Part shown: one piece after another, positions 4,899-57,971 of the stretch | How positions within the stretch are numbered: the first letter of the stretch is position 1 | Layout: the number at the start of each line of letters is the position of its first letter | NCBI GenBank assembly: GCA_964016885.1 | Contig: OZ024743.1 | Coordinates: 52,700,001 to 52,764,000, forward strand | Direction of reading: 5' to 3' | From: Eledone cirrhosa | Taxonomy: Eukaryota | Length of the DNA: 64,000 nucleotides | Position numbers and translations under genes: made by a program | The notes under the pieces: model-generated | The model's database searches: none | The model's input: only the letters and a program-made list of their open reading frames with translations | Told to the model about the DNA's origin: nothing

Positions 4899-5001
4899 TA
4901 TGAAAAAGTGAGTCCTTCATCAGTGACCCTCCAACCGTCCCAAAGCGATGAAATGCCTGGGACGGTTGGAGGGTCACTGATGAAGGACTCACTTTTTCAT
5001 A
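4899..5001. repeat. Perfect 44-bp-arm fold-back fragment containing a hammerhead 5' half (CTGATGA-AGGAC)
   Basis: 4899-4942 is the reverse complement of 4958-5001, with a 15-nt spacer. A related single copy lies at about 28647-28740 (minus). Confidence 0.8.
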
Positions 5002-5717
5002 CATATATATATATACATGTATATATATACAAATACACATTTATTTATAAGGTAAAACAAATCTAAGTGAACAGAGAAAGGGGAACATCAGGGAGTGTTC
5101 TTTAAAATTGTACATACATACATATAAATACACACACACAAACACACACGTGTGTGTATGTTTGTGTGTGTGTGTGTGTGTGTGTGTGTGTGTGTGTGTG
5201 TGTGTGTGTGTTTGCGTGTATTCATGTATAGACGAATCAAGCACCATATCAACAACAGAAGCATGATTGCAGTGGAAAAGGTCAAAGATTTGTAATTGTT
5301 TGTCAAACACACTTTGAAATATCAGTCGTATTTTGAAAACGTGACACACACACATACACACACACACACACACACACACACACGCACACACACACACGCA
5401 CACACACATAAAAACACACACACACACACATACACACACATATACACATATATATATGGATACATACATATACACATATATATATATATATATATGTATT
5501 TGTATACACAAATATATCCACAAATAAACGCACATATACACAAAGACAACATACACAGATATATATAATTTGGGGATGTATTTGTGTGTATAAACACACA
5601 CATACACATACACACACACGCACACACAGTCACGCTCACTCACGTCCATACAGAGAGAAAAACCAATATAAACCAAATAAAATGGCGGCTATGAGAAAGC
5701 TGCGTTGGGAGTGGAGA

Positions 5718-6217
5718 ATGACAGTTGTGTGTATGTTGTGAGGTAGCACTGACATCTGTGTATGTTGTGAGGTAGCACTGACATCTGTGTGTGTTGTGAG
5801 GTAGCACTGACATCTGTGTGTGTTGTGAGGTACCACTGACAACTGTGTGTATGTTGTGAGGTATCACTGGCATCTGGGTATGTTGTGAGGTATCATTGAC
5901 ATCTGTGTGTATGTTGTGAGGTACCACTGACATCTGTGTATGTTGTTAGGTACCACTGATATCTGTGTGTGTTGTGAGGTACACTGACATCTGTGTGTGT
6001 TATGAGGTACCACTGACATCTGTGTGTGTGTTGTGAGGTACCACTGACAATTGTGTGTGTGTTGTGAGGTACCACTGACAACTGTGTGTGTGTTGTGAGG
6101 TACCACTGACAACTGTGTGTGTGTGTTGTGAGGTACCACTGACAACTGTGTGTGTGTTGTGAGGTATCACTGACAACTGTGTGTGTTGTGAGGTACCACT
6201 GACAACTGTGTGTGTTG
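5718..6217. repeat. ~29-35-bp minisatellite (GTTGTGAGGTACCACTGACA+(TG)n)
   Basis: Visible tandem units with variable TG tracts. Confidence 0.9.
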
Positions 6218-6269
6218 TAAAGTAGCTTTGTAGCCTCTGCTGACCTCTTTCTGAGTATCTTGTGATAAA

Positions 6270-55815: not shown

Positions 55816-56523
55816 GACACATATATATAATGTGTATGTGTCTGTATGTCAATCTCTCTCTCTAACCTATATATATATATATATATATTTATATATATAT
55901 ATATATATATATATATATATATATATATATATATATATACATACACACACATACGTACTCCTATATGACGTGATCAATAGTTATTACGATATGCTGTCTA
56001 TATATAACCATGGAGTGCACATGTGAAGTTGTATGTCATTAATATCGATATTACTTGATGAAACGGCACATTGCATCTATTTATGCACATACAATATATA
56101 TATATATATATGTATTTATATATATGTATATATATATATGTATATATATATGTATATATATATATATATATATATATATATATATATATATATATATATA
56201 TATATATATATATATATATATATATATATATTTTTATATACACACTTATGTCTTCACTAAAATAATGAGAAATAAGCAATAGAGCTAAATATAGCAATGT
56301 GTGTCTATATGTGTTTGTGCGTTTGTGTATGTGTATATGTGTCTATATGCAGGTGCTTGTATATGTAAATACTATATACATACATACATACATACATACA
56401 TACATACATACATACATACATACATACATACATACATACATATATATATATATATATATATATATATATATATATATATATATATATATATATATATATA
56501 TATATATATATATATATATATAT

Positions 56524-56715
56524 AACGAAGGAACTGTGGTAAAGAACCAGGTAGACCATAACGCACCAAAGTACTCTATACTTAGGGTAGTAGAGTGGGT
56601 AATAGGAACGAGTAGGACCCCGACGGCTGAGCTCAAGCCGTTTCGACGGCTAATTCTGGACTCAATTAGCCGTCGAAACGGCTTGAGCTCAGCCGTCGGG
56701 GTCCTACTCGTTCCT
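56524..56715. mobile_element. Family D fold-back insertion in (TA)n
   Basis: Arms 56603-56655 and 56663-56715 are reverse complements. Inversion point is almost the same as at 36695. Confidence 0.75.
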
Positions 56716-57910
56716 GTATATATATATATATATATATATATGTATACACACACACACACACACATATATATATAACTATATATATATATATATATATGTA
56801 CACGTCATGACGGTGTTACCCCTTGGATGGATAGATACGTTAAAGTATAGATATAGACACAACACATGCATTCACTGAGAGTAATAAACAAAGAAAAACC
56901 AAGACAAATATAGAAAAAGAAAACAACGAAAAATAAATAAACAGAAAGATATATATATATATATATATATATATAGAGAGAGAGAGAGAGACGGAGGGAT
57001 GAGACAAAGAGTGAGAGAGAGAGTGAGTGAGAGAGAGGGAGAGAGAGAGAGTGAGAGGGATAAGAGATAGATATATATATATAGATATATAAGATAGATA
57101 GATAGATAGATGATAGAGAGCCAGTAGATGAAATACCAACGCCAATAGAGTGTCGAGTAGAGTTCTCACAGAATCGTATTACCGAGAGCGTGAATCAGCT
57201 GAGATGTGAAGTAGGATAAATAAATAAGATATATAGATATATAGTAGGAAAATACTAGAGAAACCACTGTTCACCCGGGGATATATTCCGGCAACGTTTA
57301 ATTATAGTAACAAGGCTATTGGGAAAACTGAGATGGACGTTCGGCCTTCAAACATCGTCACTGTAAAACACTCGAGCGGCCATTTTGGAAAGATTTTCCT
57401 CGGTACTCACCTCATCTTGATAATAAACACTACTTTCTCAAGTCGTTTTTGTATTATATCTACTCTTTTCTTTTGTGTGTTATTGTTTCTTTTATGTTTG
57501 ATTGTTTAGTTGGATAGCTGATTAAATGGTTGGTTGTATTTCTCACTCTCTCTCTCTCTCTCTCTCTCTCTCTCTCTCTCTCTCTCTCTCTCTCTCTCTC
57601 TCTCTCTCTCTCTCTCTCTCTCTCTCTCTCTTTCTCTCTATCTATCTATTAATCTATCTTTCCTTTATATGTAATATATGTACGAGTTGCATCAGAAAGA
57701 TAACAGGACTTAGTGTGCTGTGTGAGCTATGATATGGCTAGGGTTTAGCGCCTTACGTCACCGTGTGACGTAATATCCAGGAAGTGTATCCCTGCAGCCA
57801 TTGTATGTTTCTTTCACCTGCTTTTGTTAACTGCTCAAGTTTTTCCAGGAAAAACTTGAACCGTTAAGATCTTCTTCCTGGATATGTCAATATTTATAAA
57901 ACAAACTTTG

Positions 57911-57971
57911 TATTTTATCTGATGAGAGCGTACCAAATTTTTGGTACCCTTGAAATATATATAATAGAATA
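57911..57971 (+). ncRNA. Type I hammerhead ribozyme, family C
   Basis: TATTTTAT CTGATGA GAG C GTACCAA/TTGGTAC C CTT GAAA TATATA TA ATAGAATA. Confidence 0.78.

Follow-up and report, generated by a model that had tools for sequence, protein, structure and literature searches.

Repeat families in a 64,000-nt window of the Eledone cirrhosa genome share a Penelope-type insertion signature with paired short and long 3' ends

Introduction

Endonuclease-bearing Penelope-like elements (PLEs) of the Hydra and Neptune groups are described as inserting into (TA)n targets with 5' truncation, partial tandems, and an inverted copy; they contain hammerheads and a "tail" of 30 to 40 nucleotides (nt) that is often present at one end only. 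How such tandem and inverted insertions, tailed on one side, arise is treated there as an unsettled question (PMC8557442). Here, we analyze seven repeat families that between them show all of these hallmarks and that occur together in 64,000 nt of the 3.0-Gb, microsatellite-rich genome of Eledone cirrhosa (contig OZ024743.1; G000:C4:52700001-52764000), a stretch that we refer to as the window. By their window positions, the families are A (4899), B (17261), C (17773), D (23221), E (29617/37262/38213), F (36622/56524), and G (37784/44068).

For one PLE, Poseidon PAc of the anole, the reaction has been followed in vitro: the protein, which is predicted to form a dimer, cuts and extends both strands of an AT-rich target, and the tail is the stretch between two internal start sites of the reverse transcriptase (RT) on the RNA (PMC11167929). 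Metazoan non-LTR (long terminal repeat) retrozymes share with families C, D, and E an organization into tandem units of 310 to 510 nt that lack an open reading frame (ORF) and carry a type I hammerhead. As far as the available text of these reports goes, a circular template (PMC7229834) and mobilization by PLEs are proposed, as we propose for C, D, and E, and the argument for the retrozyme-PLE link, already made before our study, is drawn from co-occurrence and from homology of PLE pseudo-LTRs (pLTRs) (PMC7229834; bioRxiv 10.64898/2026.07.22.740005). The nearest precedents for family B are the schistosome repeats Sm-alpha and Sj-alpha, tRNA-derived and similar to short interspersed nuclear elements (SINEs), which belong to a group of hammerhead-carrying repeats in the portion of the report available (PMC2770079). 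MRC1-type Chlamys elements, finally, are presented in the accessible part of their description as ORF-free, multicopy, head-to-tail PLE passengers from a clade mostly without canonical hammerheads (PMC8557442).

A sequence-only reading of the window had attributed its inverted and tandem repeats, taken to be noncoding and ribozyme bearing, to a single Penelope-type machinery that prefers (TA)n and primes on both sides of the break. We followed these repeats through the genome, and the loci obtained are cited below by L numbers.

Results

At all of the coordinates given above, the families occur as inverted and often tandem copies whose outer ends adjoin TA tracts, and the A to G repeats are dispersed in the genome. 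A first look yielded 1573 candidates for C, 1649 for B, 2079 for G, 507 for F, and 644 for A, which are not copy numbers, and one 38-mer of D has 4054 exact occurrences (control, 0). As the sequence words of D and E are too common for a DNA search, D loci were gathered by sequence pattern, and the evidence for E, including its truncation, inversion, one-sided tail, and TA flanks, comes from its copies in the window and from others met by chance at further loci.

Two fixed 3' ends, one short and one long, characterize each family; they lie apart by approximately 30 nt in D, 40 nt in A, 45 nt in B, 60 nt in E, 85 nt in F and G, and 108 nt in C. The extra stretch between the short and the long end is the known PLE tail. 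In our end census, loci were picked by internal sequence, and each set except that of D includes the window copy. Two-armed insertions combined one short with one long end in 7/7 cases for A, 17/17 for C, 9/9 for D, and 16/22 for B, the remaining six B insertions having one unclassifiable end. Among loci of F and G picked by the long end, an inverted short arm was found in 23/30 and 15/30, respectively, and no inverted arm was detected in the rest. No like-ended pair occurred among the two-armed insertions of the A, B, C, D, F, and G sets. Another 40 B loci comprised 20 short-plus-long pairs, 5 with an unclassified end, and 15 single-armed insertions. Two-armed insertions numbered 46 among 51 D loci, each obeying the rule; 31 of the 46 had been chosen by pairing end matches, which leaves the other 15 as independent evidence. 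Genome-wide, on the forward strand alone, 1189 short and 762 long D ends are joined to TA; on the reverse strand, overlapping matches inflate the count. The same pairing rule holds for head-to-head pairs of autonomous Neptune-type elements (L136, L146).

Among loci picked by internal sequence, 175 of 187 3' ends adjoin (TA)4, compared with 6.7% of random positions in the window, 12.8% of random positions in 20 PLE loci, and 2 of 14 ends of an abundant SINE-like family (30925-31111 and six further sites in the window) that served as a control. An informative duplication of the flank was seen at 5/105 loci (control, 1/400), with any such duplication mostly hidden in TA. At three loci (L011, L029, L092), 16 to 43 nt of the flank are duplicated beyond the TA runs, which may reflect staggered cuts or the addition of TA during priming. 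In sum, families A to G display PLE-type insertion, with 5' truncation, an inverted copy, a tail at one end, and a (TA)n target. The PLE-type mobilization, the (TA)n preference, and the priming on both sides of the break that had been suggested for the window are supported.

The two arms of an insertion also share their sequence variants. In D, both arms carry the same haplotype in 39/42 insertions, whereas only 221 of 1722 arm pairs across loci do so (13%). The 42 loci contain 21 haplotypes, many of them private but carried by all units of both arms. The arms of C belong to a common subfamily and share private variants in three loci, and marker 228 of B was concordant in 34 cases and discordant in 1, with 7 cases of alignment noise. 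D arms reach approximately 28 units (L248), in 21/46 insertions the arm with the short end exceeds the other in length, arm lengths do not correlate (rho 0.23, p 0.13), and the inner boundaries of the two arms are usually not the same. The point at which arms meet varies, with 0 to 5 shared bases in 26/40 junctions, six complex loci being excluded and nearby variants causing some of the apparent gaps. Only 2 of 97 5' ends of D fall within 7 nt of the predicted ribozyme cut (4.7 expected), so that they avoid rather than favor it. The 5' ends of D thus appear to ignore the predicted cut, as a circular template would lead one to expect.

By sequence definition, C, D, and E are non-LTR retrozymes with predicted hammerheads. 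Their ORF-free tandem units measure 483 nt (C), 310 nt (D), and 423 to 511 nt (E), and descriptor matches predict one type I hammerhead per tandem unit; that of E lies outside the window fragments, in full units elsewhere. In the window, a short-3'-end arm of C (17771..17859, minus strand; end at unit position 352) is followed by three 483-nt units on the plus strand (17861..19286) that finish at the long 3' end (position 460) and contain predicted hammerheads at 18054-18137, 18537-18620, and 19020-19103. The long-3'-end arm of D (23220..23696, minus strand) includes a predicted minimal hammerhead (23384-23426), and the plus-strand arm (23699..24546) holds 2.7 units of 310 nt, with predicted hammerheads at 23751-23793, 24061-24103, and 24371-24413, before finishing at the short 3' end. 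Family E is represented by head-to-head pairs at 29617..29906 (long end at 29617, short end at 29906) and 37262..37498, and by plus-strand fragments with a short (38214..38335) and a long (43861..43995) end.

The hammerhead of D is predicted at the tip of a long stem. Its haplotype-level variants affect N7, loop II, and stem positions, mostly keeping the pairing, and leave the core letters invariant. Stems III of C, D, and G are short and palindromic, an architecture that marks dimer-type hammerheads in the accessible part of PMC4209133. The stems of the C hammerhead resemble those of L131. L131 and its relatives represent a young and complete Neptune-type element (pLTR-ORF-pLTR) whose hammerhead has a U3-A8 core variant and whose tail measures 67 nt. 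Stem II of D matches that of a further family, K (57972-58070 in the window; L133, L136, L140, L148, L197), a common hammerhead end with a 65-nt tail and short/long pairing; by eye, the K tail shares a short motif with the F tail, at a level not above the shuffle control.

In total, the window contains 12 matches to the type I hammerhead descriptor (C, three; D, four; G, five), whereas the reversed window has none and 30 shuffles have 0.07 on average. The Rfam hammerhead models gave no match at the gathering score in the window or in 12 loci and none in D alone, and for the whole window at an E value of ≤1, the best 150 of 211 matches included no ribozyme and consisted mostly of microsatellite matches to microRNA models.

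D sequence was also found in 20 sequencing runs of 17 studies, with a clean unit circle in two. We considered and rejected D as an independently spreading RNA: the runs with D also carry traces of the host SINE (18 to 171 contigs, versus 73,272 in one run), and because of these traces, the presence of D there fits trace DNA.

The 259-nt unit of family B contains a complete tRNA cloverleaf, scoring 44 to 45 bits with the Rfam tRNA model (cutoff, 29). ARAGORN calls this tRNA in 23/25 other B loci; the window copy was missed because 5 nt of its T loop are absent. The window insertion consists of a short-3'-end arm of 1.4 units (17262..17623, minus strand), with the tRNA-like head at 17359..17424 (minus strand), and a long-3'-end arm (17620..17761, plus strand). 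The head has A and B boxes and, like the D hammerhead, is predicted at the tip of a long stem. Since its anticodon loop has neither U33 nor a purine at position 37, it is presumably not a working tRNA. The tRNA shows no depletion of substitutions among B copies, with 31 of 129 falling in its 72 of the 259 nt. In an older subfamily (27864..28025, plus strand; 76% alike), which also has a tRNA-like head, inspection by eye showed that acceptor and D stem pairing was kept through three one-sided changes, that one acceptor pair was lost, and that the anticodon stem was weaker. Neither strand of B gave a hammerhead descriptor match or an Rfam ribozyme match at an E value of ≤10. Family B lacks the 3' end typical of long interspersed nuclear elements (LINEs); it has two internal PLE-type ends instead, and no flank duplication was found in 25 B loci.

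For the 5' ends of B, we used 34 loci picked by the 5' half of the tRNA, with 48 tRNA-bearing arms. Starts at unit positions 85 to 99, around the +1 of the tRNA at position 92, were found in 33 of the 48 (15% expected), approximately four of which are artifacts of the extension rule, namely, internal units, a deletion, and a local duplication; the other 15 extend into the preceding unit. Several pairs have both arms stopping at the same base near the tRNA start. Because of this pileup, the B template would have a defined 5' end, as expected of an RNA made by polymerase III or released by RNase P. A circular template for B had been suggested by 26 loci ranked on full-length match, which showed no 5' pileup, and was discarded once the tRNA-5'-half sample reversed that result.

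Their longer copies show that F and G, rather than being independent RNAs, are 5'-truncated ends of protein-coding PLEs, predicted to belong to the Hydra clade. Longer F copies extend upstream into an RT/GIY-YIG ORF (L196, L205, L287), and G in L281 continues through approximately 1.5 kb of untranslated sequence into a 561-amino-acid ORF, into which L282 and L284 also align. The translations (L281, L287) have a CxCX5C linker before a C-terminal GIY-YIG-like domain, and DKT replaces DKG in G (L281), the F copies being truncated ahead of this motif; both features define the Hydra clade in the available part of PMC8557442. The two ORFs are 40% identical to each other. Pfam gave no match for them (L281, L287), and their Atlas neighbors bear HTH_animal and RVT_1. 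The G hammerhead passes the descriptor; F has stems I to III but a CUGAGAA core and fails it. This core breaks the 3-8 pair and is identical in three long copies (including L196 and L205).

In the window, F forms head-to-head pairs at 36622..36834 (short end at 36622, long end at 36834) and 56525..56714 (long end at 56525, short end at 56714), together with a diverged long-end copy (52087..52226, minus strand). The G pairs lie at 37784..38199 (long end at 37784, short end at 38199; predicted hammerhead at 37892-37956, minus strand) and 44068..44652 (short end at 44068, long end at 44652; predicted hammerheads at 44108-44172, minus strand, and 44462-44526, plus strand), the latter being the 3' end of a second Hydra PLE. 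G-related fragments are found at 19715..19864 (minus strand, short end; predicted hammerhead at 19755-19819) and 57880..57983 (plus strand; predicted hammerhead at 57911-57971).

Family A has a tandem unit of 628 to 630 nt with only a CUGAUGA half core. On both strands, we found no descriptor match and no Rfam ribozyme match at an E value of ≤10, and attempts by eye to draw a permuted or long-range hammerhead in A and B failed. Its window copies are a long-3'-end arm (4862..4942, minus strand) with its outer end at 4862, a short-3'-end arm (4943..5002, plus strand), and a near-full unit of a subfamily 87% alike (28642..29230, minus strand) with a TA tract on either side.

These results call for some revision of how the window was first described. 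The folds reported for it hold, with C, D, and G matching the type I hammerhead descriptor, half folds in A and F, and a tRNA-like fold in B. The description as ribozyme bearing does not extend to A, which has a half core even in full units, or to B, which has no ribozyme. The absence of ORFs is correct for the window copies and incorrect for F and G as families, whose longer copies enter PLE ORFs, so that these two are not noncoding elements. Nor does the mobilizing machinery appear to be single: the genome contains 10,596 GIY-YIG candidates (150 scored), the 20 loci examined included several Neptune-type families, and at least two Hydra families are present. Many PLE families of both groups are thus predicted, and both groups show the insertion signature.

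Outside the seven families, the window contains two L1/Tx1-like non-LTR elements with endonuclease and RT ORFs (928-4444 and 48593-52054, approximately 80% alike) and a further 3' fragment with 98% identity to the copy at 928-4444. There are RTE-like RT 3' fragments at 28-615 and at 26298-27416, where the fragment starts inside a TA tract, ORF fragments of 152 and 196 amino acids with the look of a DNA transposon protein (40445-41384, minus strand), and 12 degenerate CCTAAC units forming an interstitial telomere-like repeat (21070-21142). At 15207-15657, TA tracts of differing length lie between three identical 85-nt units, and related ends recur next to other insertions (L270, L273, L274). 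Additional hammerhead-like cores and TA-flanked inverted fragments, at 39418 (minus strand), 39622 (plus strand), 63009 (minus strand), 62625-63234, 29285-29584, 17022-17231, and 19336-19543, are probably ends of other PLE families.

Discussion

Our data make it very likely that the A to G repeats are mobilized by PLE proteins, and two-site priming is, in our judgment, highly probable. We favor with moderate confidence the complete chain of events, including a single circular template. In this chain, a PLE protein would cleave a (TA)n tract on both strands, and one RNA would be copied from two fixed start points, one on each side of the break, with a protein dimer priming at both sites via TA microhomology; the two cDNA ends would then pair with and complete one another. 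In D, and by analogy in C and E, tandem transcripts may self-cleave via hammerhead dimers and be ligated into unit-length circles, whose repeated copying would yield uniform arrays of up to approximately 28 units per arm. New, uniform D haplotypes would arise most simply from repeated copying of a monomer circle. In B, polymerase III initiation and/or RNase P cleavage would set the 5' end in place of a ribozyme.

Several observations weigh against parts of this proposal. We could assign no autonomous partner to A to E: no end homology was found between these families and the PLE-type ends NepA, NepB, F, G, and K, five ends in a genome with thousands of GIY-YIG candidates. A T5 run after the B tRNA could stop polymerase III ahead of the priming sites. 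A large head-to-head A array of 24 units with alternating unit variants (G000:C1:132609100-132623600; L290, L291) is a higher-order expansion after insertion. As to the template, 3 of 42 D insertions are discordant, with L275 being a mosaic of two known haplotypes, in L269 a variant confined to one unit is shared by both D arms at unit 2, and the C arms of L005, L014, and L015 have variants in every other unit. These cases (L269, L275, and L250 in D and the period-2 variants in C) point to multimeric templates or later gene conversion in some insertions, over a monomer circle. The hammerhead, furthermore, is dispensable for insertion in vitro (PMC11167929), and eight of nine predicted dimers of frog retrozymes showed no cleavage in the available part of that report (bioRxiv 2026.07.22.740005).

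The strongest competitor, which we consider unlikely but deserving of attention, retains two-site PLE priming and replaces the circle with a linear multimeric transcript of the source array or with two RNAs from one master locus active in germ cells. The D loci and period-2 patterns just mentioned would follow naturally from it, uncleaved RNA is the main substrate in vitro (PMC11167929), and the B template is plainly linear with a fixed 5' end. What it explains poorly is that 21 haplotypes in 42 D loci are uniform in both arms, which would need a repeated single-unit bottleneck; linear copying alone only shortens arrays, and single-unit variants almost never recur between loci. A second arm made as a fold-back DNA copy of the first cDNA and trimmed by the endonuclease, so that the tail is left on one side, comes near the "resolution" idea found in the available text of PMC8557442 and would account for the shared haplotypes and for some symmetric junctions (C in L027, several B and F copies). 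The symmetric B junctions are, however, expected once both copies reach the RNA 5' end, the inner boundaries in D usually differ, and fold-back copying is contradicted wherever the short-ended arm has units that the long-ended arm lacks. Because the short-ended D arm is so often the longer one and arm lengths are uncorrelated, simple fold-back copying is excluded, and we regard this class of explanation as very improbable.

We give even less weight to the idea that the repeats are satellites or LINE-mobilized SINEs that gather in TA tracts and become inverted through recombination. L1-like and RTE-like RTs are present in the window, large A arrays expand after insertion, and the B head is SINE-like, but poly(A) tails are missing, informative flank duplications are rare (5/105), ORF-bearing PLEs obey the same two-end rule, and the ordinary SINE of the window seldom touches TA. 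That the inversions are long-read fold-back or assembly artifacts is scarcely credible: such artifacts would mirror the flank and give equal ends, whereas here the ends differ by a family-specific length, flanks and arm lengths differ, and the pattern is found on many chromosomes.

Two-site PLE priming also finds its place among the described systems. The phenomenon is mostly of a known kind, and its component parts have been published (PMC8557442; PMC11167929; PMC7229834; bioRxiv 2026.07.22.740005); to these we add counts that support two-site priming from a single template, and a passenger with a tRNA head and no ribozyme. With respect to the PLEs of PMC8557442, in the text available, tails here span a wider range (approximately 30 to 110 nt), and the strict pairing of one short with one long end and the haplotypes shared between arms are counted here. 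PAc starts without target homology and with no difference in start site between strands (PMC11167929), in contrast to the TA-like microhomology and the different site on each side in our insertions. Head-to-head arrays, two fixed ends, and (TA)n targets are seen here and are not described in the available parts of the retrozyme reports (PMC7229834; bioRxiv 10.64898/2026.07.22.740005), and to their co-occurrence and pLTR homology we add insertion scars that match those of PLEs. In the accessible text on Sm-alpha and Sj-alpha, the elements carry a hammerhead (PMC2770079), unlike B, and the Chlamys elements, as far as they are described there, are algal and share 3' ends with autonomous partners (PMC8557442), in contrast to the result for A to E and the five ends compared.

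Inversion is also known from another class of retrotransposons. In twin priming of L1, two target-primed cDNAs are joined by microhomology, which generates an inversion, with the second primer at a variable internal site. In our insertions, by comparison, both sites are fixed and either arm may hold many units.

A joint proposal for B and for the pairing rule is more tentative, and we would place it a little below even: B may be a tRNA-headed SINE moved by a PLE RT rather than by a LINE, with a polymerase III start and an RNase P cut, both from the tRNA pathway of the host, taking the place of the hammerhead, and the short-plus-long pairing may reflect a PLE dimer that copies one RNA, a circle in the case of retrozymes, from two fixed sites at once, which would explain tail, inversion, and tandem arrays in one step. 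For a PLE-mobilized tRNA SINE and for the pairing rule, we found no precedent in the titles and abstracts of the open-license literature.

The case for which enzyme mobilizes animal retrozymes has so far been built on co-occurrence and repeat homology. The reaction itself can be read from the very young D arrays, with two fixed start sites, one on each side, one haplotype, and no stop at the ribozyme cut. With these arrays come exactly defined RNA substrates, and predictions that an in vitro assay can address. Family B inflates the tRNA gene counts of this genome, and if our proposal for it is true, SINE-like RNAs would have more enzymes at their disposal.

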